Part shown: positions 1 through 13,734 of the stretch, piece after piece
Numbering within the stretch: the stretch's first letter is position 1
How the letters are laid out: each line of letters begins with the position of its first letter
Assembly: GCA_963815495.1 (NCBI GenBank)
Contig: CAWFGW010000025.1
Location: forward strand, 7,013 to 71,012
Reading direction: 5' to 3'
DNA: 64,000 bases
DNA from: an uncultured Cytophagales bacterium
GTDB lineage: Bacteria; Bacteroidota; Bacteroidia; Cytophagales; JAAEPT01
Program-made: the position numbers and the translations under genes
The notes under the pieces: model-generated
Told to the model about the DNA's origin: nothing
Database searches by the model: none
Seen by the model: only the letters and a program-made list of their open reading frames with translations

Positions 1-622
1 GCAACACCTTATAAATCGCTGCAAAAAGCACTGTAGTTATCCCGATTGATAGGATGAAATTTGCTACCTGTGAAAAAACAACTAACTCAGTCCCGAAATG
101 AGACGACAACCAATCGCTTATAATACTAATAATGGCACTGATCACTAAAGACATTAACAATAAAAAGCCGACAACCACCACTATTCCCAAGGAAGTAAAC
201 CGATCCTTTATGACTTCTTTTATACCCGCATCTTCTTTTTTTCTGACGTCCCAAACGTTATTTAAAGCATTTTGCAATTGAATAAACATACCTGTTGCTC
301 CGAATAATAGTGTACCAATACCTATTATACTTGAAAGTAACGATTGATCTTCAAACCGAATGCTCGAGAGTATATGTTTTATGTTTTCACGGGAATCTTC
401 TCCTAAGAATGACACCAACTCATCAGTCATTTTATTGGTGGTTGTAGCACTGTCTAAGAAAAACCCTAAAATTGATAACGTAATAAGTAATAAACCAGGC
501 AAAGAAAACACTGCATAATAGGCAACTGCTGCCGCTTTAGTAAAAGGGTCATCTTTCATCCACCCTTTAGAAGTTTCTTTTAATAAGCTTAATGAATCTC
601 GAAGTTTAAATTTGCCTTCCAT
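1..622 (-). CDS. YihY/BrkB-family inner-membrane protein; partial, start codon at 622-620, 3' end runs off the window
   Basis: Edge-truncated, so absent from the ORF track. My minus-strand translation from ATG 622 reads MEGKFKLRDSLSLLKETSKGWMKDDPFTKAAAVAYYAVFSLPGLLLI...GATGMFIQLQNALNNVWDV... The AYY.FSL.P and LQ.ALN..W motifs plus multiple TM helices are typical of YihY/BrkB. Confidence 0.75.
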   Translation of the reverse strand, partial: MEGKFKLRDSLSLLKETSKGWMKDDPFTKAAAVAYYAVFSLPGLLLITLSILGFFLDSATTTNKMTDELVSFLGEDSRENIKHILSSIRFEDQSLLSSIIGIGTLLFGATGMFIQLQNALNNVWDVRKKEDAGIKEVIKDRFTSLGIVVVVGFLLLMSLVISAIISIISDWLSSHFGTELVVFSQVANFILSIGITTVLFAAIYKVL

Positions 623-912
623 TTATTACTATTTTAAATCGTTGTTTTATAGCTATCATATTAACTAACCACCATGGTTGCTTATCAAAAATTATGCTTA
701 GTAATTTTAAGTGATTAGTGACTGCTATAATTGATAATTAGCAAAATTTTAACGAAAAAAGTGTTGACTGTTGGGGAAAAAAAGAAACACTTCAAGAGTA
801 ACAATTGGAGGTTTTTTCTGCTAATAATTTTTTTTGAGTTCGACTATTCAACTTCTCACAGTATAATATCTTATATTAATGGTTTCAACTGGTACAACAT
901 TACAACAAAACT

Positions 913-3900
913 ATGTTCGCTAAAATCTCCCCTAAACTCATTGCCATAGCAATAGGTACAATTACCCTTTTTGCCGTAGGTTTCTACTTTTTAAACAAAA
1001 CATCATCCACCGACTCTGAAGCCTATGTTGAGAAAGAAGTTAACGAAGCCTTTAATGAATATATCGCTGCGTATACTTCGGGTAATATCTCCATCAGTTC
1101 GACTATTCAAATTCGTTTTACACAACCTCAAATTGTAGAAGATAAAATAGGTTCGGCAGAAACGCGGGAGCTTTTCAACTTTTCTCCCTCCATTAAAGGT
1201 GATGTTAAATGGGTGGATATTTTCACTCTTGAATTTCAACCAACAGAATGGTTAAAACCAGACCAAGTGTATGAAGTCAAATTCCTCTTGTCTGATTTGA
1301 TGGAGACAAAAAAAGGATTAGAAAAATTTGAGTTCAACTTTCACACCCTTAAACAAGATTTTGAAGTCACAATTGGCAACTTACTAACCTCTGCCGAAAA
1401 CATGAAAAAGGTGGCTTTATCGGGTAAACTCATTACTGCGGATGTAGCACAACAAGAAAAAATTGAAGCGACCTTATCCGCTACTCAAAATAATAACACC
1501 TTAGAAATCACTTGGAATCACTTAGGCGATACCGAACATGAATTTACAATTGCCAACATCGACCGAAAAGAAACAGCCAGTGAAGTAGTTTTAAATTGGG
1601 ATGGGGCAAAGATTGGCGTTGATAAAAAAGGGGAATCCAAAACTAAAATCCCTGCCCTGGGTGACTTTCAAATTATGAGTGTCACACCTCAAGTTGGAAC
1701 CGAACAATATATACTCATTTCCTTCTCTGATCCGCTTGACCCTTCTCAGGATTTAAAAGGATTAATTACCACCAACCAAAACTGTGACCTGAAATTCATC
1801 ATTGAAAACAACTTTATTCAGGTTTACCCGAGTAAAAAAATTATTGGCTCTTTTGAATTAACCCTCCATCCAGGCATCAAAAATGTCTTAGGCTACAAGT
1901 CAAAAAAAGAACAGAAACATATTCTAGTCTTTGAACAAGTAAAACCTGCTGTACGTCTTATAGGTTCTGGGGTAATTGTCCCGGCTTCCAATGGGCTCAT
2001 CTTCCCTTTTGAAGCAGTAAGTTTAAAAGCCGTTGACATTACCATCACCGAGATTTTTGAAAACAATGCGATTCAGTTTTTCCAGCACAACAACATAGAC
2101 GGAAGTCATGATTTAAAACGTGTGGCTCGACCGATTTTTAGAAAAAGTCTAGTACTCAACAACAACAAACTACTCAAACTCAATAAGTGGAACCGTTTTT
2201 CTATTGATTTAGCCAAACTAATTCAACCCAACCCTGGTGCAATCTACCAAGTAGAAATAGGGTTCAGACAAAGTCAAAGTGTCTATAGCTGTGGTGGCGA
2301 AGCAGCGCAGGATGAATTAACACCCATCAATGATGAGGCGTGGACAGCTGAGTCGTACACCGATTATTCGTATTGGGATTATGCTGAAGGAGAATATTAT
2401 GAAGACTACGACTGGCAAGAGCGCGACAATCCGTGCCATTCAACCTATTTTCGAAGCAACGACAAAAGTTCCACAAGAAACATCATCGCCAGTAACTTAG
2501 GGATCATTTCTAAAATCGGGAAAGACGATAAAGTATTCATAGCGGTCACAGATATTAATACCACCAATCCTATTGAAAATGTAACCATCGAAGTCTACGA
2601 TTTCCAACAACAGCTCATCACCCAAGGAGCAACAGATAACAACGGGTTTTTAACGCTCAAAACTAATAGAAAATCATTTCTGATTAAGGCCACTAAAGAA
2701 AACGATATCAACTACTTAAAGGTAGATGATGGGTCTGCGCTTTCCTTAAGCAACTTTAATGTGGGTGGTACAACCATTCAAAAAGGGTTGAAAGGATTTA
2801 TCTATGGCGAACGTGGTGTTTGGCGACCAGGCGACACCTTGTATATGACCTTAATTTTGGAAGATAAAAATCATGTGTTACCCAAGAACCACCCCGTAAT
2901 TTTTGAACTCCGCAATCCTGATGGGAAACTAGAACATAAGCTCGTTAAAAAATCTAACGTGAATGGGTTTTATACCTATCAACCCATCACCAGCAACGAA
3001 GCGATGACGGGCAACTGGCGGGTATATGCAAAAATTGGGAACACCTCATTTTCTGAGCGTGTGAAGATTGAGACCATCAAACCCAACCGACTGAAAATTG
3101 ATTTAGACTATGGAAAAGAATACCTCACTGTAAATGATAAAAACCTCAAGGGTGATTTAGAAGTCAAGTGGCTGCATGGCGGTATTGCTAAAAACTTAAA
3201 AGCTGAATTTGAACTCGTTTTGACCAAAGCAAACACCACGTTCCCAAAATATGAAACGTACACCTTTGAAGATCAAACGCGACAATTTACTCCTGAGGTC
3301 TTCTCGATTTTTGAAGGTGAACTAGATAGTGAAGGAAAAGCTCAAATCCCGGCTAGCATCGAAATTGAAGGTGATGCTCCAGGTAAATTAAACGCACACT
3401 TTAAAGGGAAAGTCTATGAACAAGGCGGTGACTTTAGCATCAACCAATTTACAATCCCTTATTATCCTTATAATTCATTCGTAGGTGTTCGTTTGCCTGA
3501 AGGTGATCACCGAGGCATGTTATTGACGGACAAAGAGCAACCGGTTGACATCATTTGCCTAACTCCGGAAGGAGAACCAACTGGTAACAAATATGTGACT
3601 TGCCAAGTCTATAAGTTAGATTGGAAATGGTGGTGGGACCAATCGTCTAACAGTTCTTCCAACTACATTGGAGTTAGTTATCGAACACCTATTGCGGAAC
3701 AGCAAGTTAAAATAACGGATGGCAAAGGGACTTTTCCAATGAAAATCAACTACCCGGAATGGGGACGATATTATGTAAAAGTCACCGACAACAAGTCAGG
3801 ACACTCAGCAGGTAAAATTGTCTATTTTGATTGGCCAGGTTGGGCAGGAAAAGCCAAACGCGATTTACCCGATGCAGCTTCGATGTTAACTTTCTCGGCT

Positions 3901-6477
3901 GACAAAGAAAAATACAGCGTGGGAGAAACGATGAAACTGACCATTCCTGGAAGTGGTGAAGGAAATGCATTGATCAGTGTAGAAAATGGTACGCGTGTAA
4001 TAGAAACTTATTGGATGAAGTTGAACAAAGGAGACAACCAGTTCACAATCAACATCAACAATAAAATGACTCCGAATGTGTATGTGCATGTGACCGCATT
4101 ACAACCCCATGCACAAACAATTAATGATCACCCCATTAGAATGTACGGTGTAATTCCAATTGATGTGGCTGATGAATCAACCCATCTAAATCCAGTAATC
4201 TCGATGCCTAAGAAGTTAGCGCCTAATAAGAAAGTTCCGATTACGGTAACAGAGAAAGAAGGCAAACCGATGACCTTTACCCTCGCTGTGGTGGATGAAG
4301 GTTTGTTGAGTTTGACCAACTACACCACCCCGAATCCCTGGCCTAACTTCTACCAGCATGAAGCCTTAGGGGTAAACACCTGGGACATTTACAAATATGT
4401 ATTAGGGGCTTATGGTGGAGAAATAGAAAAGATACTATCCGTAGGTGGTGATGCTGCTATCCTTAATGAAGAAGGAGCAAAAGCCAAACGATTCAAACCT
4501 GTTGTGCGTTTCTTCGGACCTTTCCATCTGGACAAGTCGGGTAAAAAGGATATCGAATTTGTGATGCCTAACTACATTGGCGCGGTGCGTACAATGGTGG
4601 TAGCTGGTTATGAAGGTGCTTACGGTGCTGTGGAAACAGAAACTCCTGTGCGGCAAGAACTCATGGTACAGGGGACCTTACCTCGGGTGCTTTCTCCAGG
4701 TGAAAAGTTAAAATTACCCGTGAATGTGTTTGCCTATGAAAACAATATTGGCGCCACAACCATCAAAGTTAAAACAAGTGGACCCGTAAAGGCATTGGAA
4801 ACGACCAAGTCAATTACTTTGACCAAAGAAGGGGATCAAATGCTGTACTTCGAACTAGAAGTTGAAAACAAAATCGGGATTGCTAAAGTAGAAATTGAAG
4901 GCAGAGCTGGGAATAAGCTCTCTACCCATGTGATTGATATTGAGGTAAGAAACCCCAACCCGGTGGTTACTGAGACCTTTGAAAAAGTCTTGAAATCGGG
5001 TGAGTCGATTAGCTATACCTACCCTACGTTGGGCATGAAAGGTACCAATGGTTATTCATTTGAAGCTTCCACAGTTCCGCCATTAAACCTTTCCAAGCGG
5101 CTGGAATACCTGCTTCGTTATCCGCATGGTTGTGTCGAGCAAACCACTTCGGCTGCGTTCCCACAACTGTTTTTGGGTGAGTTAACGGATTTGACCAGCG
5201 AAATGAAAAGCAGAGTGGAAATCAACATCAAAAAAGCGATAGACCGTTTGTCAAGTATGCAAGTCTCGGATGGTGGTTTCAGCTACTGGCCAACACATAG
5301 CTATGCAAACACCTGGGGATCTAACTATGCAGGACATTTCTTAATCATCGCTAAGAAGAAAGGATATTATGTCAATACCGATATCATTAATAACTGGAAA
5401 CAGTACCAGAAAAAAGCGGCAGACAACTGGACTCATAATACCAATTATTATAACAGTGACTTAATGCAAGCTTACCGCTTGTACACCTTGGCTGTCGCGG
5501 GTTCACCTAACAAAGGCGCAATGAACCGCTTGAAAGAAAAGCAACTGAACAAAACTGCTCAGTACATGCTAGCCGCTGCCTATGCGTTGGATGGTCGCAG
5601 TGATGTTGCCAAAACCTTGATCGCCTCTGCCCCACCAACCATTAAAGACTATCGTGAATATGGGTACACGTATGGTTCACAAGAACGAGACGAAGCTATG
5701 TTATTATTAGCTTTAAATGCTATGAAAGATGTAGAAAACGGGATGGTTGCTGTGAAAAAAATTAGCGACCGACTCAATGCCAAACGCTGGATGAGTACGC
5801 AGGAAACGTCCTTTTCGTTATTGGCAATCAGCGATTACATGGCCGGACAACCGGTTTCTTCAACCGTAAACTTGGATATGAATTTGAACGACCAAAACGT
5901 TTCCATCTCCTCGCAATATTCCGTGTACAAACAAGAATTTCACGAGGCAGAATTGACCAATAAAACCATCAAGGTTACCAACACGAGTAATGGATTGTTG
6001 TACCTCAACACAAGCTCTTATGGCAAACCTTTGGTAGACAAAAGAGAAAGCTTCAATGAAATTATTGATATGGAAGTGAACTACCGTGACAAAGAAGGTA
6101 ACGCAATAAATGTAAACCAACTGGCTCAAAACAAAGACTTCCTCGTATCGGTAACGATCCAAAATGGTGGACTTCGAGGTGACTTAAAGGAAATGGCTTT
6201 GACCACGATCTTCCCTTCTGGCTGGGAAATTCAAAATGCACGCATGGATGTAGTTGCGGAACAATACCAGTCAGACAAACCCGACTACCAGGACTACCGC
6301 GATGACCGTGTGTACACCTATTTCGACATCAAATCAGGAGCTTCAAAGACATTTACCTTCCTGATTAATGCAAGTTATGCGGGTGAATTTACCCTACCAG
6401 CCACCCAATGTGAAGCAATGTATGATAATGCGGTGCAGGCTTATGTGAAAGGTGGGAAGACCAAGACGGTGAAGTGA
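913..6477 (+). CDS. Bacterial alpha-2-macroglobulin family protein (1854 aa), thioester-containing, N-terminal membrane anchor
   Basis: Very long ORF. It has an N-terminal TM segment (LIAIAIGTITLFAVGFYFL) and the CxEQ thioester motif in RYPHGCVEQTTSAAFPQ. A terpenoid-cyclase-like TED region follows (SDGGFSYWP). Size and layout match YfhM/ECAM-type A2M. Confidence 0.9.
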   Translation: MFAKISPKLIAIAIGTITLFAVGFYFLNKTSSTDSEAYVEKEVNEAFNEYIAAYTSGNISISSTIQIRFTQPQIVEDKIGSAETRELFNFSPSIKGDVKWVDIFTLEFQPTEWLKPDQVYEVKFLLSDLMETKKGLEKFEFNFHTLKQDFEVTIGNLLTSAENMKKVALSGKLITADVAQQEKIEATLSATQNNNTLEITWNHLGDTEHEFTIANIDRKETASEVVLNWDGAKIGVDKKGESKTKIPALGDFQIMSVTPQVGTEQYILISFSDPLDPSQDLKGLITTNQNCDLKFIIENNFIQVYPSKKIIGSFELTLHPGIKNVLGYKSKKEQKHILVFEQVKPAVRLIGSGVIVPASNGLIFPFEAVSLKAVDITITEIFENNAIQFFQHNNIDGSHDLKRVARPIFRKSLVLNNNKLLKLNKWNRFSIDLAKLIQPNPGAIYQVEIGFRQSQSVYSCGGEAAQDELTPINDEAWTAESYTDYSYWDYAEGEYYEDYDWQERDNPCHSTYFRSNDKSSTRNIIASNLGIISKIGKDDKVFIAVTDINTTNPIENVTIEVYDFQQQLITQGATDNNGFLTLKTNRKSFLIKATKENDINYLKVDDGSALSLSNFNVGGTTIQKGLKGFIYGERGVWRPGDTLYMTLILEDKNHVLPKNHPVIFELRNPDGKLEHKLVKKSNVNGFYTYQPITSNEAMTGNWRVYAKIGNTSFSERVKIETIKPNRLKIDLDYGKEYLTVNDKNLKGDLEVKWLHGGIAKNLKAEFELVLTKANTTFPKYETYTFEDQTRQFTPEVFSIFEGELDSEGKAQIPASIEIEGDAPGKLNAHFKGKVYEQGGDFSINQFTIPYYPYNSFVGVRLPEGDHRGMLLTDKEQPVDIICLTPEGEPTGNKYVTCQVYKLDWKWWWDQSSNSSSNYIGVSYRTPIAEQQVKITDGKGTFPMKINYPEWGRYYVKVTDNKSGHSAGKIVYFDWPGWAGKAKRDLPDAASMLTFSADKEKYSVGETMKLTIPGSGEGNALISVENGTRVIETYWMKLNKGDNQFTININNKMTPNVYVHVTALQPHAQTINDHPIRMYGVIPIDVADESTHLNPVISMPKKLAPNKKVPITVTEKEGKPMTFTLAVVDEGLLSLTNYTTPNPWPNFYQHEALGVNTWDIYKYVLGAYGGEIEKILSVGGDAAILNEEGAKAKRFKPVVRFFGPFHLDKSGKKDIEFVMPNYIGAVRTMVVAGYEGAYGAVETETPVRQELMVQGTLPRVLSPGEKLKLPVNVFAYENNIGATTIKVKTSGPVKALETTKSITLTKEGDQMLYFELEVENKIGIAKVEIEGRAGNKLSTHVIDIEVRNPNPVVTETFEKVLKSGESISYTYPTLGMKGTNGYSFEASTVPPLNLSKRLEYLLRYPHGCVEQTTSAAFPQLFLGELTDLTSEMKSRVEINIKKAIDRLSSMQVSDGGFSYWPTHSYANTWGSNYAGHFLIIAKKKGYYVNTDIINNWKQYQKKAADNWTHNTNYYNSDLMQAYRLYTLAVAGSPNKGAMNRLKEKQLNKTAQYMLAAAYALDGRSDVAKTLIASAPPTIKDYREYGYTYGSQERDEAMLLLALNAMKDVENGMVAVKKISDRLNAKRWMSTQETSFSLLAISDYMAGQPVSSTVNLDMNLNDQNVSISSQYSVYKQEFHEAELTNKTIKVTNTSNGLLYLNTSSYGKPLVDKRESFNEIIDMEVNYRDKEGNAINVNQLAQNKDFLVSVTIQNGGLRGDLKEMALTTIFPSGWEIQNARMDVVAEQYQSDKPDYQDYRDDRVYTYFDIKSGASKTFTFLINASYAGEFTLPATQCEAMYDNAVQAYVKGGKTKTVK

Positions 6478-6583
6478 TATGAAAGATAAAATAACTGCAA
6501 CCGAATTTTGGGAAGAGTTATTAAAAACTGGCTCGGTTAATAATAAAGAATTAACTGAGGGATTTGTTTTTAAAAAACATGCA

Positions 6584-7293
6584 CCGCTAGCGCAAGCATC
6601 CTTGCTTGTGCTAAATAAATAATGGGTAGTCCAGCGATGTAGCTTTTTTGTTTAATCTGTTAATTTTTATTAAATAGTATTTTTAAACATTATTTGAATG
6701 AGCAGGAAGTATAAATTTTTAAATAAAGAAGGCTTATATTTTGTCAGCTTTGCCACGGTCTACTGGATAGATGTTTTTACAAGGGAAGAGTATTTTGAGA
6801 AAGTTGTTGAAAGTATCAGGTTCTGCCAGAAGCAAAAAGGTTTAGAACTTTTTTCATGGTGTATAATGACCAACCATGTGCATATGATATTTAGAGCTAA
6901 AGACAATAATCCATCAGAATTAATGCGAGCATTAAAAACATTTACATCAAACGAATTACAGAAGATAATTGCTGAACATAATCAAGAGAGCAGAAAAGAA
7001 TGGATGCTTTGGTTGATGGAACGAGCAGCACAAAAATCTAGTAATGTAAAACACAGGCAATTTTGGAGGCAAGATAATAAACCAATAGAACTTTGGAGTG
7101 CAGAAGTAATAGATCAAAAATTACAATACATCCATATGAACCCAATAGTAGCAGGATTTGTCAATGAACCAGAACATTGGAGGTATAGTAGTGCAATTGA
7201 TTTTTCTGGAGGTAAAGGTTTGTTAGAATTATATGAATTGTAAATTGAGTTATGAATTAAAATTTGCACAAGCAAGGATGCTTGCGCTAGCGG
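6584..7293 (+). mobile_element. REP-RAYT-REP unit, copy 1: RAYT gene bracketed by perfect 28-nt inverted repeats (6584-6611 and 7266-7293)
   Basis: Left IR is ccgctagcgcaagcatccttgcttgtgc. Right IR is its exact reverse complement, gcacaagcaaggatgcttgcgctagcgg. Each IR folds on its own (gcgcaagca/tcct/tgcttgtgc) directly 3' of a CTAG tetranucleotide. Confidence 0.8.
6698..7243 (+). CDS. REP-associated tyrosine transposase (RAYT; IS200/IS605-like Y1/HUH TnpA family), copy 1
   Basis: 181 aa. HUH motif in MTNHVHMIF and a catalytic-Tyr region YIHMNPIVAGF (Y-x-x-x-NP), with RYSS near the C-terminus. No tnpB partner. Flanked by REP hairpins. Confidence 0.8.
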   Translation: MSRKYKFLNKEGLYFVSFATVYWIDVFTREEYFEKVVESIRFCQKQKGLELFSWCIMTNHVHMIFRAKDNNPSELMRALKTFTSNELQKIIAEHNQESRKEWMLWLMERAAQKSSNVKHRQFWRQDNKPIELWSAEVIDQKLQYIHMNPIVAGFVNEPEHWRYSSAIDFSGGKGLLELYEL

Positions 7294-7361
7294 GGAAAAT
7301 ATCCCTATGTTGGAGGTACAGTAATACCTCCAACAAAAATTATTGTTAAACGACCTTAGAT

Positions 7362-7682
7362 ATGTCTGTATTAGAAATTGATAAAATTGATGCTATTGGA
7401 ATAGATAAAGAACAAGGTAATGTTGTTTTGACTATTTCTGACCATTTAGATTGGGATGATGTAAATAGTCATCTTCATATTCTTCAAAAGAAAATCAATA
7501 ATTATTTAGAATTTATTGAGGGGGGACAGATTTATGAATCATATCCACTTGCGAATAATAAAAATATAGAGATTCATGTTAAATATCAATATGAATTACC
7601 ACATTTGGCTCTTGATTTTTATGAAAAAATAAAATCTGTTTTGATTTTAGAAAACATAACACTTCTTTATAAGAATCTTTAA
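7362..7682 (+). CDS. Hypothetical small cytoplasmic protein (106 aa) occupying variable slot 1 of the island
   Basis: Clean ORF with no signal peptide. The pattern VVLTISDHLDW..HLHILQKKINNYLEFIEGGQIY resembles a widespread ~100-aa uncharacterised family that I recall only from memory (unverified). Confidence 0.5.
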   Translation: MSVLEIDKIDAIGIDKEQGNVVLTISDHLDWDDVNSHLHILQKKINNYLEFIEGGQIYESYPLANNKNIEIHVKYQYELPHLALDFYEKIKSVLILENITLLYKNL

Positions 7683-7688
7683 CTTAAT

Positions 7689-7780
7689 CCCGCTAGGTCG
7701 CATATAACGAAGTGAAATGCGAACTGATGTTACCCCCGCTAGGTCGCATATAACGAAGTGCCATGCGAACTGATGTTTTA
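7689..7780 (+). repeat. Two tandem 46-nt REP-like hairpin units (CCCGCTAG + GTCGCAT-loop-ATGCGAAC)
   Basis: Unit 1 is 7689-7734 and unit 2 is 7735-7780. They differ by 2 nt in the loop and in the tail. Stem is tcgcat (7698-7703) with atgcga (7717-7722). They share the CCGCTAG 5' heptamer with the RAYT-flanking IRs. Confidence 0.75.
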
Positions 7781-7979
7781 TAGCATTTGTAATGCGGTTA
7801 TAAGAGATACAAATCCTATAGCGCAAGGTTAAGCAAAGCGGTCCTTGGGCTTACCCTTTATTCGACATTTGCAATGTCAAACTACAGATAAAAAAGATTT
7901 GTAATCAGCTCTGCCTTGGTTTGTGTATCCAAAACCAACGACAGTTAGTCAGTGAGGACACTGACTAAGGCGAGATGAA

Positions 7980-8066
7980 GATTTGTTTTCAAGATGAAGA
8001 GATTCCAGACAATCACTCATTCTTCGTGATTTCTGATGACGTGTTGCTCATTTTTTATCGTCATTC
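7980..8066 (+). repeat. ~88-nt multi-hairpin intergenic repeat, copy a (upstream of T9SS paralog A)
   Basis: The sequence gatttgttttcaagat..agattccagacaatcactcattcttcgtgatttctg.atgacg..ttttttatcgtcattc recurs at 9335-9423, 11596-11682 and 12952-13040. It contains IR cagacaatcac/gtgatttctg and IR (g)aatgacg/cgtcatt(c). Confidence 0.8.
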
Positions 8067-8148
8067 TAAAAAATAGTGTTTACCTATAGGTGTACACAAG
8101 TATATAAAAGCATATTAAATCTTGTAACCTAACATTACCTTTTAGACG

Positions 8149-9204
8149 ATGAAAAAACTACTACTACCCTTGATTTTAATTTCCGCAGTATTTCACGCAT
8201 ATGCCGTTGATGAAATTCAGTTTGTTGACACCGTTTATGTCGAGTACCACCCACATTGTGACACCATCGCAGCTGTTCACATTGAAGGATGGTTTCCGGC
8301 AAGTAATTATGTCATTGACAGCATAGCAAATAAACCTATTGTCCACACAGGCCCTGGTCCAATAACAATTGCTGGACCTGAAATTCAGCTTTACATATCA
8401 GAAACCGGGGGTGTTGGCACCCAATCTCCTGTTCCGTTTAAATCCGTTTATTACCTTCTTACCAAGGGTAGCAGCAACACATTCACGACACCCTATAGGT
8501 TTGTACCATTGATAGTTTACACCTACTTAAATCAGGATCTGTTGGAGGAGGTGAAACAGGCTGACTATAAATACAGAGGACAGACAGGTTGTGTAAGTGT
8601 AATCCCAGCTTGTGACAACATCACCACTTATGAAGTATCGCTTGGCTGTCCGAGTAAACCCATTACAAATTGCGATTCTTTGCAAGTTCATATCTCTACT
8701 GATTATGTTCCTTGTATGGGCTATACATTGATAGAAACCACTCAAACATTCAAAAACGACACGGTTATCATCAAACATCAATTTCTGTACGATGACAACG
8801 GCCCTATTTGCATCGACTATTTTGGACCTTCATTTCAATTCACTAAAATAAAACCTCTAGATGCCGGAGATTATGTCGCAAAGGTAGAAATGCATTTTAC
8901 AGGTGAATTGATATTTAAAGCTCCTGAATATTACTACAAAGATTTTACAGTAAATAAAGAGACGTGTCTCATCACAGGGATAAATGAATTCAATCAAAAA
9001 TCGATGGTTTATCCGTCCGTGGTAGAGGATTACCTGAATCTAACTATTTCAGCTGAAAAAGTGCAAATTTATGATATGCAAGGCAATCAAGTGATGACAG
9101 CTCAGGGGAAAACGGTGCTTTTAAATAATTTACAGCCAGGGAATTACATTATAGAAATACAAACCAAAAAGGGGTTGTTTAGAGAAAAAATCATCAAGTT
9201 ATAA
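8149..9204 (+). CDS. Secreted Cys-rich protein with T9SS C-terminal sorting domain, paralog A (351 aa)
   Basis: Signal peptide MKKLLLPLILISAVFHAYA|VDE. The C-terminal ~70 aa (VYPSVVEDYLNLTI..VQIYDMQGNQV...LQPGNYIIEIQTKKGLFREKIIKL) matches the Por/T9SS type A CTD pattern. The central part has no family I recognise. Confidence 0.75.
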   Translation: MKKLLLPLILISAVFHAYAVDEIQFVDTVYVEYHPHCDTIAAVHIEGWFPASNYVIDSIANKPIVHTGPGPITIAGPEIQLYISETGGVGTQSPVPFKSVYYLLTKGSSNTFTTPYRFVPLIVYTYLNQDLLEEVKQADYKYRGQTGCVSVIPACDNITTYEVSLGCPSKPITNCDSLQVHISTDYVPCMGYTLIETTQTFKNDTVIIKHQFLYDDNGPICIDYFGPSFQFTKIKPLDAGDYVAKVEMHFTGELIFKAPEYYYKDFTVNKETCLITGINEFNQKSMVYPSVVEDYLNLTISAEKVQIYDMQGNQVMTAQGKTVLLNNLQPGNYIIEIQTKKGLFREKIIKL

Positions 9205-9207
9205 ATT

Positions 9208-9240
9208 AAGAAGAGCCACTATAAAGTGGCTCTTCTTTTA
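9208..9240 (+). terminator. Rho-independent terminator of T9SS paralog A
   Basis: Perfect 12-bp stem aagaagagccac / gtggctcttctt with loop tataaa, followed by T-rich sequence. Confidence 0.7.
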
Positions 9241-9334
9241 ATGATTGCTTTACATTGCACTTTTTACTGGCTTAAGTTTAGCTTGCGTAACTTTAGTCAA
9301 TGATAAACTCAAGAATTCCTCATTTTAGATCTAT

Positions 9335-9423
9335 GATTCGTTTTCAAGATTGTTAGATTCCAGACAATCACTCATTCTTCGTGATTTCTGGAATGACGTA
9401 TTGTTTATTTTTTATCGTCATTC
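9335..9423 (+). repeat. ~88-nt multi-hairpin repeat, copy b (downstream of paralog A)
   Basis: About 88% identical by eye to 7980-8066, in the same orientation. Contains the perfect IR ggaatgacg...cgtcattcc. A further IR follows at 9421-9458 (attccgta...tacggaat). Confidence 0.8.
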
Positions 9424-9475
9424 CGTAAAATGTGAAGCATGAGCATTTGTACGGAATCTCTTTGTTGAAACCTCA

Positions 9476-10185
9476 CCGCTAGCGCAAGCATCCTTGCTTG
9501 TGCTAAATAAATAATGGGTAGTCCAGCGATGTAGCTTTTTTGTTTAATCTGTTAATTTTTATTAAATAGTATTTTTAAACATTATTTAAATGAGCAGGAA
9601 GTATAAATTTTTAAATAAAGAAGGCTTATATTTTGTCAGCTTTGCCACGGTCTACTGGATAGATGTTTTTACAAGGGAAGAGTATTTTGAGAAAGTTGTT
9701 GAAAGTATCAGGTTCTGCCAGAAGCAAAAAGGTTTAGAACTTTTTTCATGGTGTATAATGACCAACCATGTGCATATGATATTTAGAGCTAAAGACAATA
9801 ATCCATCAGAATTAATGCGAGCATTAAAAACATTTACATCAAACGAATTACAGAAGATAATTGCTGAAAATAATCAAGAGAGCAGAAAAGAATGGATGCT
9901 TTGGTTGATGGAACGAGCAGCACAAAAATCTAGTAATGTAAAACACAGGCAATTTTGGAGGCAAGATAATAAACCAATAGAACTTTGGAGTGCAGAAGTA
10001 ATAGATCAAAAATTACAATACATCCATATGAACCCAATAGTAGCAGGATTTGTCAATGAACCAGAACATTGGAGGTATAGTAGTGCAATTGATTTTTCTG
10101 GAGGTAAAGGTTTGTTAGAATTATATGAATTGTAAATTGAGTTATGAATTAAAATTTGCACAAGCAAGGATGCTTGCGCTAGCGG
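9476..10185 (+). mobile_element. REP-RAYT-REP unit, copy 2 (IRs 9476-9503 and 10158-10185)
   Basis: By my base-by-base comparison it is 708/710 nt identical to 6584-7293. The differences are 6696 g vs 9588 a and 6977 c vs 9869 a. The 28-nt terminal IRs are identical. Confidence 0.8.
9590..10135 (+). CDS. REP-associated tyrosine transposase (RAYT), copy 2
   Basis: 181 aa, identical to copy 1 except H94N (CAT to AAT). Confidence 0.8.
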   Translation: MSRKYKFLNKEGLYFVSFATVYWIDVFTREEYFEKVVESIRFCQKQKGLELFSWCIMTNHVHMIFRAKDNNPSELMRALKTFTSNELQKIIAENNQESRKEWMLWLMERAAQKSSNVKHRQFWRQDNKPIELWSAEVIDQKLQYIHMNPIVAGFVNEPEHWRYSSAIDFSGGKGLLELYEL

Positions 10186-10269
10186 GGGAAGTAGTATAAA
10201 TTTGATAATTGAATGATGTGTCTCAACTATATAATTAAAATGTATCGAGCGGACGCTCTACAAATAATT

Positions 10270-10301
10270 GGTCGTAGAAACGCTTCGCTAAATCTACGAC
10301 C
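10270..10301 (+). repeat. REP-like hairpin ggtcgtaga-N14-tctacgacc upstream of the 364-aa ORF
   Basis: Perfect 9-bp stem. Its 3' 21 nt (10281-10301, cgcttcgctaaatctacgacc) recur inverted at 11435-11455 (ggtcgtaggtttagcgaagcg), a 20/21 match. Confidence 0.7.
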
Positions 10302-10327
10302 AGATGGGGTTATAACTTATTAATAAA

Positions 10328-11422
10328 ATGACTCTAATAGCAGCATATATTCATAAAGGAAAAGCACATATCATAGCAGATTCTGCCGAAACAATGTCTT
10401 TCTCTACACCTTTTAAAATAAAAAATTCTCCAAGGGATAAGGATTTTTCATCATTATTTGAGCTACCATACTTTAATGAAAAAGAACAAAAAATAGTTAT
10501 GGAGGCTACAAATAAAATTTACTGTCTTAATAATGAACTTATATTAACATTTTCGGGAAGTGTCTCTGAAGGAGAAGATATAACTAAACAAATTAAATAC
10601 TCCCTAGAAAGAGATAACATTGAATCAATACCATCATTAATCTTATCAATATTAAAGAAACTTCAACCCACTAAATCACAATATATAGTAGGTGGAATGG
10701 AAAACGATTATCCATTTCTTGTTTATTATTTTGATGATAACAATCATAAAATATTAACAAAATTAGATCATTTACCATTATGTATAGCTGGTTATGGTAC
10801 ACAAATAGGATTTTCTCACTTGATAGAACAGACTATAAAGGACATCATAAAAAATCATGAACTGACATGCGAAGAATCATTAGTAATGGTTTGTTCCATT
10901 TGTCAATTTTTTTCACTGAAAGAATTAACTCTTAAAGATGGTGTGGGAGGATTTTTGAATGGCGTATTAATTTCCAAAGATGGAATCGAATGGGTAAGTG
11001 ACACTACATTTGTACAATATTCAGCAAAAAACCCTAAAGGAGATAAATATGTTTCACATAAATATAACAGGGATAATTCCGTCTTTATAATTGCTCCACA
11101 TTTTAAAAGTTGTTTTACAAACAGTTTGGAAACCTACAAAATGAATGATTTAGTGAAAAAATGGCAAGATGATATAGTTAATAAAAGTAATAATATTCCA
11201 TCCATTTATTTTGTTATGATATCTTATGATACTGCAACAATGGTAATCATCAGCAACAAGCGTAATAAAAAAAACAGAATAACCCTAAAAAATCTAAATG
11301 GGGATAAAATATTTAATTTTACATCAGAAACTATTAAGCATATGACTTCGTCTTATCATTCAGATAATATAGAAGAAATTGCACCTTATTTTTACACAAA
11401 TTTTTTAAGTTGGATTAATTAA
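10328..11422 (+). CDS. Hypothetical 364-aa protein: putative divergent proteasome-beta/HslV-like Ntn-hydrolase domain (aa ~1-225) plus unknown C-terminal domain; occupies variable slot 2
   Basis: By-eye motif match. M-T(1)LIAAYI; Asp at mature position 17 (HIIAD17S); ATNK(62)[21 protein letters not shown] vs E. coli HslV KK(33)[44 protein letters not shown] vs the beta-subunit hhhGG.D..gP.Ly.hD..G pattern; [10 protein letters not shown] at the GSG position; [19 protein letters not shown] vs D..SGG.h.h.hI.kdG. A ~29-aa insertion lies between D17 and the Lys. Not verified by any search. Confidence 0.4.
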   Translation: [364 protein letters not shown]

Positions 11423-11595
11423 GTCACTTCCACTGGTCGTAGGTTTAGCGAAGCGGTCCTTGTGGCTTACCCTCTGTTCGACATTTGCAATGTCAAACTA
11501 CAGATAAAAATGATTTGTAATCAGCTCTGCCTTGGCTTGTGTCTCCAAAACCAACGACAGTTGGTCAGTGAGGACACTGACTAAGGCGAGGTGAA

Positions 11596-11682
11596 GATTT
11601 GTTTTCAAGATGAAGAGATTACAGACAATCACTCATTCTTCGTGATTTCTGATGACGTGTTGCTCATTTTTTATCGTCATTC
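11596..11682 (+). repeat. ~88-nt multi-hairpin repeat, copy c
   Basis: Matches 7980-8066 with 1 substitution (ccagac to acagac). Confidence 0.8.
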
Positions 11683-11765
11683 TAAAAAATAGTGTTTACC
11701 TATGGGTGTACACAAGTATATAAAAGCATATTAAATCTTGTAACCTAACATTACCTTTTAAGACG

Positions 11766-12821
11766 ATGAAAAAACTACTACTACCCTTGATTTTACTTTC
11801 TGCTGTATTCCACGCTTATGCCGTTAATGAAATTCAGTTTGTTGACACCGTTTATGTCGAGTACCACCCACATTGTGACACCATCGCAGCTGTTCACATT
11901 GAAGGATGGTTTCCGGCAAGTAATTATGTCATTGACAGCATAGCAAATAAACCTATTGTCCACACAGGCCCTGGTCCAATAACAATTGCTGGACCTGAAA
12001 TTCAGCTTTACATATCAGAAACCGGGGGTGTTGGCACCCAATCTCCTGTTCCGTTTAAATCCGTTTATTACCTTCTTACCAAGGGTAGCAGCAACACATT
12101 CACGACACCCTATAGGTTTGTACCATTGATAGTTTACACCTACTTAAATCAGGATCTGTTGGAGGAGGTGAAACAGGCTGACTATAAATACAGAGGACAG
12201 ACAGGTTGTGTAAGTGTAATCCCAGCTTGTGACAACATCACCACTTTTGACGTATCGCTTGGCTGTCCAAGTAAACCCATTACAAATTGTGATTCTTTAC
12301 AAGTTCTTATCTCTACTGATTATGTTCCTTGTATGGGCTATACATTGATAGAAACCACTCAAACATTCAAAAAAGATACGGTTATCATCAAACATCAATT
12401 TCTGTACGATGACAACGGCCCTATTTGCATCGACTATTTTGGACCTTCATTTCGATTCACTAAAATAAAACCTCTAGATGCCGGAGATTATGTCGCAAAG
12501 GTAGAAATGCATTTTACAGGTGAATTGATATTTAAAGCTCCTGAATATTACTACAAAGATTTTACAGTAAATAAAGAGACGTGTCTCATCACAGGGCTAA
12601 ATGAATTCAATCAAAAATCGATGGTTTATCCGTCCGTGGTAGAGGATTACCTGAATCTAACTATTTCAGCTGAAAAAGTGCAAATTTATGATATGCAAGG
12701 CAATCAAGTGATGACAGCTCAGGGGAAAACGGTGCTTTTAAATAATTTACAGCCAGGGAATTACATTATAGAAATACAAACCAAAAAGGGGTTGTTTAGA
12801 GAAAAAATCATCAAGTTATAA
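11766..12821 (+). CDS. Secreted Cys-rich protein with T9SS C-terminal sorting domain, paralog B (351 aa)
   Basis: Differs from paralog A by 8 aa (I11L, D21N, Y/F, E/D, H/L, N/K, Q/R, I/L). Same signal peptide and CTD. Confidence 0.75.
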   Translation: MKKLLLPLILLSAVFHAYAVNEIQFVDTVYVEYHPHCDTIAAVHIEGWFPASNYVIDSIANKPIVHTGPGPITIAGPEIQLYISETGGVGTQSPVPFKSVYYLLTKGSSNTFTTPYRFVPLIVYTYLNQDLLEEVKQADYKYRGQTGCVSVIPACDNITTFDVSLGCPSKPITNCDSLQVLISTDYVPCMGYTLIETTQTFKKDTVIIKHQFLYDDNGPICIDYFGPSFRFTKIKPLDAGDYVAKVEMHFTGELIFKAPEYYYKDFTVNKETCLITGLNEFNQKSMVYPSVVEDYLNLTISAEKVQIYDMQGNQVMTAQGKTVLLNNLQPGNYIIEIQTKKGLFREKIIKL

Positions 12822-12824
12822 ATT

Positions 12825-12857
12825 AAGAAGAGCCACTATAAAGTGGCTCTTCTTTTA
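12825..12857 (+). terminator. Rho-independent terminator of T9SS paralog B
   Basis: Same 12-bp stem-loop as 9208-9240. Confidence 0.7.
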
Positions 12858-12951
12858 ATAATTGCTTTACATTGCACTTTTTACTGGCTTAAGTTTAGCT
12901 TGCGTAACTTTAGTCAATGATAAACTCAAGAATTCCTCATTTTAGATCTAT

Positions 12952-13040
12952 GATTCGTTTTCAAGATTGTTAGATTCCAGACAATCACTCATTCTTCGTG
13001 ATTTCTGGAATGACGTATTGTTTATTTTTTATCGTCATTC
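12952..13040 (+). repeat. ~88-nt multi-hairpin repeat, copy d
   Basis: Identical to 9335-9423 as far as I can read. Confidence 0.8.
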
Positions 13041-13143
13041 CGTAAAATGTGAAGCATGAGCATTTGTACGGAATCTCTTTGTTGAAACCTCCCTTAGCTC
13101 AAATTACGCTGAAAAAGCAATCGTTTAGCCAAAAATCGCAGCA

Positions 13144-13734
13144 TTAACCTTTATTATTATCTACCAAAAACCCTTCAGCCCTCAACTTCACAATGTCAAA
13201 AAACTCAGTAAAACCATCTTCCAATTCGTTGTAATGTTTCTTTAACTCAACCACAGCTGAATGCATGGTGTTTTGGTAAGGCGTTCTGCGCGACATGCTT
13301 TTCAGGATCTGATCAATACCATCAACTGTTGGGTATGACTGAATCCAATTCCGTTTTTTCATGTAATAAAAGTATTGTCCTGCTTTGTAATTAAGCCAGC
13401 TGTGATGTTGGTCAATCATTGCATAATAAATACTAGCCGCGTCTATCAGTGGGAGTTCGGAATAGGCCCTCCAGTTTTTGGCTAAAAAATGATCATATAC
13501 TACATCTATAATTACACTGGAATAATGTCGATGATTTATAAAGACACTTTTACTCGCTTTTGAAACTTCGTGATTGTCCATCAAAAAATCAATTTCGCGA
13601 TGCAAATCTATACCTTTTTGAATCCGCAAAGGTAAAGCGTCATATTCTTTTTTTGTCACAAAGTCACCTAAGAAATTTCCCGTTAAAATTTCTGAATCGT
13701 TAAACGAAAGGTAGAAGTGTGCTAAATAGTTCAA
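13144..13734 (-). CDS. acpH: Acyl carrier protein phosphodiesterase (AcpH); probable TTG start at 13734 (ORF-track ATG at 13812 likely too long)
   Basis: AcpH proteins start M-N-(F/Y)-L-A-H and are ~195 aa. Here the sequence ..TA-L-NYLAHFYLSFNDSEILTGNFLGDFV has TTG (complement of 13732-13734) exactly at that position. The ATG-initiated ORF would add 26 unrelated residues. Confidence 0.75.
   Translation of the reverse strand: MNYLAHFYLSFNDSEILTGNFLGDFVTKKEYDALPLRIQKGIDLHREIDFLMDNHEVSKASKSVFINHRHYSSVIIDVVYDHFLAKNWRAYSELPLIDAASIYYAMIDQHHSWLNYKAGQYFYYMKKRNWIQSYPTVDGIDQILKSMSRRTPYQNTMHSAVVELKKHYNELEDGFTEFFDIVKLRAEGFLVDNNKG

Follow-up and report, generated by a model that had tools for sequence, protein, structure and literature searches.

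Can a REP-associated tyrosine transposase (RAYT; REP, repetitive extragenic palindrome) act on its own gene and on the DNA beside it? RAYTs are textbook domesticated bacterial transposases. Their role in vivo has, to our knowledge, not been established, and the standard view, as far as we know it, is that a RAYT gene and the repeats on either side of it do not travel together as one unit. The question is raised by a 64,000-nucleotide stretch of DNA from an uncultured Cytophagales bacterium (assembly GCA_963815495.1, contig CAWFGW010000025.1, positions 7,013 to 71,012 of the forward strand; hereafter the window), which holds two nearly identical hairpin-RAYT-hairpin units. An earlier inspection, hereafter the sequence-only reading, saw in them a recently mobilised unit. 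We find that both units are embedded in a larger tandem repeat, and we favour, with moderate confidence, RAYT-mediated local amplification of the unit together with its downstream DNA over dispersal in the manner of an insertion sequence (IS).

The two units occupy positions 6584-7293 and 9476-10185 on the forward strand, and an ungapped comparison at an offset of 2892 gives two mismatches over 710 nt each (99.7% identity). One is G/A at 6696, 2 nt 5' of the ATG; the other is C/A at 6977, which replaces histidine 94 with asparagine (H94N). Outside the 710 nt the copies share 2 nt on the left (CA) and 3-4 nt on the right (GGG, then A/G, then AA), and past these few bases their flanks are unrelated. 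The sequence-only reading was therefore accurate on the two substitutions, on the abrupt end of similarity within a few nucleotides of the inverted repeats, and on hairpin-gene-hairpin being the unit of similarity. Unit 1, with its shared bases (6582-7297), comprises a left hairpin with its foot (6584-6614), a coding sequence of 181 aa with H94 (6698-7243) and a right hairpin with its foot (7263-7293); unit 2 (9474-10189) has the same parts at 9476-9506, 9590-10135 (N94) and 10155-10185. Self-comparison also recovered the terminal inverted repeats described earlier, perfect over 28 nt in each unit or 97% identical over 31 nt. As single-stranded DNA, each arm by itself forms a hairpin of 9-11 bp that includes a single G/T mismatch, with folding energies of -10 and -8.8 kcal/mol and z-scores of -3.2 and -3.9. 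The foot CCGCTAG occurs at six sites in the 64 kb, against 1.6 expected, and all six lie where the sequence-only reading had placed them: at the four unit ends and in two 46-nt tandem repeats at 7684-7775, which makes about three independent occurrences. The 22-nt hairpin, with up to three mismatches allowed, is confined to the four unit ends within the window, where none was expected. The duplication of the RAYT unit is thus far beyond chance.

That the gene encodes a RAYT, as had been supposed, is borne out by family models and catalytic residues. The 181-aa product reaches 88.9 bits against NCBIfam NF047646 (REP_Tyr_transpos; cut-off 80) and 34.7 bits against NF033573 (transpos_IS200), below the cut-off of 55, and so carries the signature of a RAYT over that of an IS200 TnpA; it also matches Pfam Y1_Tnp (PF01797, E 6e-11). 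An alignment of 28 homologues shows no variation at H60 and H62 of the HUH motif (NHVH) or at Y144, N148 and P149, and all of these residues are kept in both window copies, which therefore possess the HUH motif and single catalytic tyrosine of a Y1 HUH core within the Y1_Tnp domain. Because residue 94 is either H or N across these homologues, H94N looks neutral. Searched against the PDB, a profile of the family finds Escherichia coli TnpAREP (4er8) as its best match (E 1.7e-6), and a phmmer search of the PDB with the single protein returned no match. The top Foldseek match of an AlphaFold model built from 25 close homologues is again 4er8, which is weak support given that the model is poor (pLDDT 53).

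By length, motifs, spacing between HUH motif and tyrosine, Bacteroidota host and hairpin type, the protein is a probable member of Bacteroidetes subclass 2.6 of Quentin et al. 2018 (PMC6006769), which corresponds to Group 5 of Bertels et al. (PMC5581495). Members of this subclass average about 179 aa (181 aa here), have the motifs NH[LIV]H and YIH[QN]NP, show a median HUH-Y spacing of 82 aa (84 aa here), belong to Bacteroidetes and are flanked by hairpins without GT[AG]G (PMC6006769). The window RAYT has NHVH and a tyrosine motif of the general form YIHxNP, although the variable residue departs from the subclass (YIHMNP), and its flanking hairpins, with their CCGCTAG foot, are likewise atypical in lacking GT[AG]G. 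Its cognate palindromes stand inverted around the gene, both arms of the perfect 28-nt repeat being hairpins. As in the subclass, some relatives are single copies at a fixed locus, for example in Pontibacter actiniarum. The protein, apparently a typical RAYT of a published subclass, and its inverted-repeat architecture are both already known. The departure lies in the two 99.7%-identical copies, found here without dispersed hairpin copies: instead of the one vertically inherited copy per hairpin type that is typical of RAYTs there are two, with low third-codon divergence from a related lineage (see below). Near-identical RAYT duplicates are rare, amounting to 0.8-6.3% of members depending on the group, and Group 5 is reported as slowly evolving, vertically congruent and not prone to duplication (PMC5581495), unlike the apparently recent lateral exchange at this locus.

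The context of the two units changes how they should be understood. A self-BLAST of the window revealed a second duplication, overlooked by the sequence-only reading, in which 7826-9474 (block A) recurs at 11441-13091 (block B) over 1651 nt with 98.2% identity. Block A stops exactly where the second RAYT copy starts. From left to right, the order is the A2M gene, unit 1, cargo X (7294-7825), block A, unit 2, cargo Y (10186-11440), block B and the rest of the genome, all these parts of the repeat being annotated on the forward strand. The layout is a tandem repeat of RAYT, cargo and block, present twice with differing cargo, and the self-BLAST found no homology between cargo X and cargo Y. The sequence-only reading had itself named a larger segmental duplication with replaced intervening sequence, combined with a lack of independent insertion sites in any genome, as the observation that would speak against a mobile unit, and half of this is what we see, since the copies do belong to a larger tandem repeat in which cargo has been replaced.

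The ends of this repeat are precise. Block A ends ...GAAACCTC and adjoins the ACCGCTAG of unit 2; block B ends in the same ...GAAACCTC and continues CCTTAGCTC..., so that the two junctions read ...GAAACCTC|ACCGCTAG versus ...GAAACCTC|CCTTAGC. The foot-like motif CCTTAGC (13092-13098, forward strand) thus stands directly 3' of the distal breakpoint and may be compared with CCGCTAGC at the real left end. The pattern CC[CT]TAGC has five sites in the 64 kb, one of them exactly at the distal breakpoint (C|CCTTAGC).

Two related genomes, L001 and L002, both metagenome-assembled genomes (MAGs) from one sample (ERZ25039505), place the repeat in time. Their flanks match the window at 83-88% (L001) and 95-97% (L002) identity, and at the A2M locus each carries a single intact unit with differing DNA on both sides. 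The final 178 nt of the block are part of a 210-nt insertion resembling a MITE (miniature inverted-repeat transposable element; 12914-13123), which is absent from both L001 and L002; the tandem duplication is therefore younger than the split from L002, the closest relative. Among the three genomes there are six different left junctions, all reading C|ACCGCTAG at the same nucleotide, and four right junctions, all reading CTAGCGGGG, with four different cargos at the right foot. The left flank ends in C at six of seven junctions, a match too short to be informative. The sequence-only reading had proposed a comparison of strains for insertion of the unit: differing junctions are indeed present in L001 and L002, but all of them at the same locus. 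Both genomes also carry a left-end remnant of 62-67 nt and an older, degraded RAYT about 77% identical. The degraded gene lies between the A2M gene and the intact unit (L001 9471-9771, L002 8978-9360), with the identity of about 77% in its C-terminal part, and is accompanied by a decayed hairpin (ACATAGCGCAAGCATCCGCTTGTGC). The remnants (L001 9402-9468, L002 11349-11410) both break off after GAT(A/G)TAGC, at internal positions that agree to within about 3 nt.

Divergence within the repeat is strongly uneven. The RAYT units differ at 2 of 710 nt (0.28%), and between the blocks there are 30 differing sites out of 1651, distributed as a mosaic: 19 differences in 7831-8209 (5%), none in 8210-8629 (0%), 10 in 8630-8980 (2.9%) and one in 8981-9474 (0.2%). 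A single duplication event of uniform age with clock-like divergence is ruled out by this patchiness across units and blocks. Because the divergence is so uneven, recombination or gene conversion must have been active since the duplication.

Comparison with L001 reveals a second contrast. At third codon positions the RAYT has diverged by 2.7% between the window and L001, against 26-42% for nine flanking genes, and the high identity stops at the unit ends. With a divergence some ten times below that of its flanks, the unit has probably been exchanged recently between the two lineages. RAYT relatives in plasmid and phage collections reach at most 48% identity or are lacking, and no vehicle for lateral exchange was identified there. 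The ends of the unit are also constrained. In a Cyclobacteriaceae MAG the hairpin region is identical at 31 of 31 positions while the RAYT is 74% identical at the nucleotide level, and in three more distant relatives (L006, L007 and L008, described below) the foot CCGCT(A/G)G is kept with the hairpin sequence changed on both arms, which thus covary. Because the hairpin is retained despite such divergence of the gene, and the foot despite such change in the hairpin, the foot/hairpin site is under selection, as expected for a recognition site. The suggestion that CCGCTAG plays a part like that of GTAG is consistent with this, since a motif preserved next to differing hairpins would suit recognition or cleavage.

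An element that moves freely would be expected elsewhere, as the sequence-only reading had also reasoned. We scanned one genome per species from 185,579 species for the foot-plus-hairpin as an exact pattern, by which diverged copies are missed, and found it in only two genomes. One is the MAG holding L002, the nearest GTDB relative and, in this collection, the sole close one, where the hairpin occurs twice, both times flanking its RAYT; the other is the Cyclobacteriaceae MAG, with one unit. The same exact pattern gave no match in JGI metagenomes. The RAYT protein cluster at 90% identity has four members, namely the two window copies, P0001 and P0122, and all unit copies with at least 90% identity sit at one locus, downstream of the A2M gene, in three related MAGs. 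Neither independent insertion sites nor dispersed hairpins were found: within the collections scanned there is no REP/REPIN population, and no unit at an unrelated locus. Its proposal of a recently mobilised unit survives in part, as the many junctions and the low divergence from L001 point to recent copying or exchange, but this is local and involves neighbouring DNA, and is not IS-like dispersal.

Local copying recurs in other Bacteroidota. Members of the same RAYT clade, at about 70% protein identity, form local arrays in three further genomes. Pedobacter alpinus (L006) has two units, 96.1% identical and 580 nt apart, together with a third, divergent unit and remnants; all of these lie downstream of an RHS/SpvB gene on a single strand and are separated by small unknown genes. 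In Fulvivirgaceae LMO-SS25 (L007), two units of 95.3% identity lie within an RHS C-terminal cassette array. A 7.3-Mb genome (L008) packs three units of 97.4-98.5% identity into 5.5 kb, every one set between different genes and without co-duplicated flanks. Pontibacter actiniarum (L009), by comparison, has a single copy at a fixed locus, which makes the arrays a minority state. The Fulvivirgaceae array also contains a junction comparable to that of the window. A 769-nt copy (5471-6239) of DNA downstream of the array (12176-12954) adjoins the left foot of a unit, and the breakpoint of its source, ATAGCGGGGC|GCATC, falls within an aquaporin gene. Across this 20.5-kb locus there are four sites of the right-foot motif [CT]AGCGGGG: the two unit ends, the aquaporin breakpoint and its copy. 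A breakpoint at the sole non-unit right-foot motif of the source DNA may be regarded as an independent clue to mechanism.

Taken together with the anatomy of the units, the positions of the junctions, the lack of dispersal and the divergence contrasts, all of which are direct observations, this recurrence in other genomes suggests a common process. In the scheme that we favour, the RAYT, a Y1 HUH enzyme, is encoded between inverted foot-plus-hairpin sites, each (C)ACCGCTAG with an imperfect palindrome, in an arrangement of the TIRtron type. Bound to the hairpin on single-stranded DNA, it would cut the real foot and a nearby look-alike and then join the ends, and the unit with some 2.2-2.9 kb of downstream DNA would thereby be duplicated in tandem, one breakpoint falling exactly 5' of the left foot and the other 5' of the foot-like C|CCTTAGC downstream. 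The joining might proceed by strand transfer, for instance between sister strands, or by way of a circle inserted again at the foot. Afterwards, related strains would have contributed DNA through homologous recombination, replacing patches of the block and the cargo beside the right foot (X versus Y), with the conserved RAYT and block serving as homology arms; because the 5%-diverged patch (7831-8209) lies directly beside cargo X, the two were plausibly imported together. The same process would build the local RAYT arrays of other Bacteroidota. What we infer in this scheme is that the RAYT is the catalyst, in what order the events came and what the intermediate was; for the first of these there is a biochemical precedent. 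E. coli TnpAREP shows, in vitro, REP-dependent cleavage of single-stranded DNA at loosely specified sites more than 400 nt away, as well as strand transfer, and a model of tandem amplification of bacterial interspersed mosaic elements (BIMEs) has been built on it (PMC3333891). By analogy, the junctions in the window and in the Fulvivirgaceae genome would fit this repertoire.

Several points weigh against this interpretation. In the window, the match between the distal foot-like motif and the real foot requires one indel, is weaker than the one in the Fulvivirgaceae genome and was noticed post hoc, and the lack of homology between cargos X and Y means that at least one further event is needed. 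Gene conversion alone could keep the RAYT copies near-identical, in which case two substitutions do not date the event. The window, L001 and L002 are all metagenome-assembled, so that the tandem junction rests on assembly. Finally, the confinement of all copies to one locus is also explained by ordinary tandem duplication, which is the main rival. Under this rival, host recombination or template-switching during replication produced a tandem segmental duplication at which the hairpins were mere structural hotspots, and gene conversion and cargo-swapping homologous recombination did the rest. It accounts well for copies embedded in a repeated RAYT-cargo-block, for the absence of a copy at any other locus, for related strains with alternative cargo between the same conserved arms, and for the mosaic blocks, which reveal recombination or conversion at the locus. 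It leaves to coincidence that one breakpoint lies within 1-2 nt of a unit end and the other at a foot-like motif, that a similar breakpoint occurs in the independent Fulvivirgaceae genome at a motif unique in 20 kb, and that six distinct left junctions fall on one nucleotide; junction microhomology is only 0-1 nt, and the three units of the 7.3-Mb genome lack co-duplicated flanks. We therefore consider a purely host-mediated origin rather unlikely.

The original interpretation makes the unit of 710-714 nt an autonomous element of IS200/IS605 type that, after excising or copying itself, entered a second target 3' of a C and left no target duplication. As an account of the window it seems to us improbable. 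Similarity that is exactly unit-sized between unrelated flanks speaks in its favour, as do the C at the end of six of seven left flanks, the absence of a target-site duplication, as for IS200/IS605, the two or three near-identical units between different genes in Pedobacter alpinus and the 7.3-Mb genome, and a unit far younger than the surrounding L001 genome. But what precedes unit 2 does not resume after it, as can be seen from the copy at 13092, and this rules out a single simple insertion of the bare unit in the window. The copies, moreover, are local only, with none at other loci or in plasmid or phage collections, the ends are inverted repeats and not same-strand subterminal hairpins, and the IS200 NCBIfam model stays below its cut-off. 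For arrays of the type seen in the 7.3-Mb genome, a classical jump of the bare unit is possible. Very improbable, in our view, is an assembly artefact, in which a long-read metagenome assembly concatenated two strain haplotypes, one with RAYT, cargo X and block and the other with RAYT, cargo Y and block. The window does derive from a MAG, L001 and L002 show differing cargo co-occurring at this locus in one sample (ERZ25039505), and 1.8% block divergence is at the level of strain differences. Such a concatenation would need a specific novel junction from the block end to the left foot of a unit, which is present here; the same architecture occurs in the assemblies of Pedobacter alpinus and Fulvivirgaceae LMO-SS25, and in the 7.3-Mb contig, whose RAYT protein is indexed in 58 collection blocks.

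Among known systems, the locus resembles TIRtrons, whose description, in the part available (Di Nocera et al. 2013, PMC3733652), shares with it a RAYT-like gene (TIRYT) within terminal inverted repeats (TIRs) that are not GTAG REPs, and no abundant REP family. The window agrees with that part of the description in that its TIRs are unrelated to GTAG REPs and few in number; unlike TIRtrons, which are described there as single loci, it has near-identical units in an array interleaved with variable genes (PMC3733652). With the E. coli REPtron and its TnpAREP (PMC3333891; PDB 4er8) it shares a Y1 HUH enzyme, a foot 5' of an imperfect hairpin and inverted flanking copies, and its junctions match the hairpin-anchored cleavage at loose sites, strand transfer and proposed tandem amplification reported for that enzyme in vitro (PMC3333891). 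The foot, however, is CCGCT(A/G)G in place of GTAG, the hundreds of dispersed REPs or BIMEs are missing, and what has been amplified is the gene itself, with neighbouring genes. The Y1 HUH transposase, hairpin ends, absence of target-site duplication and possible single-stranded circle intermediate recall IS200/IS605 elements such as IS608 and ISDra2. These differ in having same-strand subterminal hairpins where the window has inverted repeats of 28-31 nt, in dispersing 3' of a conserved short target where all copies here occupy one locus, and in the IS200 NCBIfam model, which the window protein does not satisfy. In the papers searched we found no description of local near-identical hairpin-RAYT-hairpin arrays interleaved with variable genes, of a lack of any dispersed hairpin family, or of duplication breakpoints at foot and foot-like sites.

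The window locus and the three independent arrays, one of them in the named species Pedobacter alpinus, thus offer natural junctions that resemble the action of a RAYT on its own gene and adjacent DNA, with one breakpoint at a real foot and the other at a foot-like site. They make a long-standing question about RAYTs testable with defined substrates: ACCGCTAG with its hairpin, and the look-alike sites CCTTAGC and TAGCGGGG. They also suggest that in some lineages the RAYT, instead of dispersing REPINs, drives the local amplification of genes and the turnover of cargo. A broader proposal, which we put forward only tentatively, is that subclass 2.6 RAYT units in Bacteroidota may still be self-active, homing to their own foot and its look-alikes, building local arrays and duplicating or capturing adjacent genes. 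If so, the arrays of variable small genes that share one orientation, and that in two genomes stand directly downstream of toxin genes of the RHS type, would reflect a single-strand, Y1-HUH-driven amplification and exchange of gene cassettes, and would be a visible in vivo activity of these 'domesticated' proteins.

The DNA between and beside the units has features of its own. Cargo X consists of a DUF6572 gene (7362-7682) directly followed by the two 46-nt tandem repeats (7684-7775), which are 91% identical. They share the CC(C)GCTAG foot with the RAYT ends and have a different, weaker hairpin (-6 kcal/mol, z about -2); they were found in neither L001 nor L002. Cargo Y carries a 364-aa gene (10328-11422) between an inverted pair of a second hairpin family (10276-10303 and 11433-11460). 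Its product begins MTLIAAY... and matches Pfam Proteasome at 21.1 bits, below the cut-off of 22.4, which makes it a candidate that may be an Ntn-hydrolase or HslV-like protein with an N-terminal threonine. Searches of the cargo genes with PADLOC and Pfam gave no convincing function, cargo Y yielding weak PADLOC matches only, and a role of the window cargo as toxin/immunity or defence cassettes is thus unproven. An Rfam scan of 6000-13600 produced nothing near the gathering score.

The 351-aa gene of each block (8149-9204 in block A, 11766-12821 in block B) encodes a protein with a sorting domain of the type IX secretion system (T9SS). The MITE-like element is truncated in block A (9297-9474) and complete in block B, where it is flanked by TTTAG. 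Within it lies a long hairpin with imperfect pairing (for 9335-9465, -21 kcal/mol and z -4.9), and upstream of each copy of the T9SS gene stands a shorter version of its core; related cores of 87-89 nt lie at 7980-8066, 9335-9423, 11596-11682 and 12952-13040.

Some of the other arrays also have distinctive neighbours. In Pedobacter alpinus (1191-13300 of that locus) and Fulvivirgaceae LMO-SS25 (1-12950), they lie directly downstream of RHS/SpvB-type toxin genes, and in the latter, pieces of the RHS core are repeated before downstream open reading frames, a pattern known from arrays of orphan toxin/immunity cassettes. None of the small genes that separate the units in these two genomes matches a Pfam family. 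In the 7.3-Mb genome, an element with a DDE_5 transposase (8875-10741) and inverted ends of its own (CTGGACTTTGGCT...) splits the right hairpin of the third unit. The single RAYT of Pontibacter actiniarum adjoins a reverse transcriptase gene and an STM3845-family gene (region 3679-6546), a context that resembles a retron or defence locus.

The second hairpin family is specific to the A2M locus and consists of a stem, ACGC..GCTAAA, the returning stem and CCAG, often followed by (A/T)TGGGG. It occurs in the window at 10281-10303 (+), 11433-11455 (-), 9267-9287 (-) and 12884-12904 (-), and in L002 at 9344-9369 (+), 11416-11436 (-) and 12901-12921 (-). Its stems differ on both sides, GGTCGTAGA/TCTACGACC in one form and CTTAAGTT/AAACTTAAG in the other. 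These hairpins are found at cargo borders: an inverted pair encloses the 364-aa gene of cargo Y, and one copy in L002 adjoins the truncated left end of a RAYT unit.

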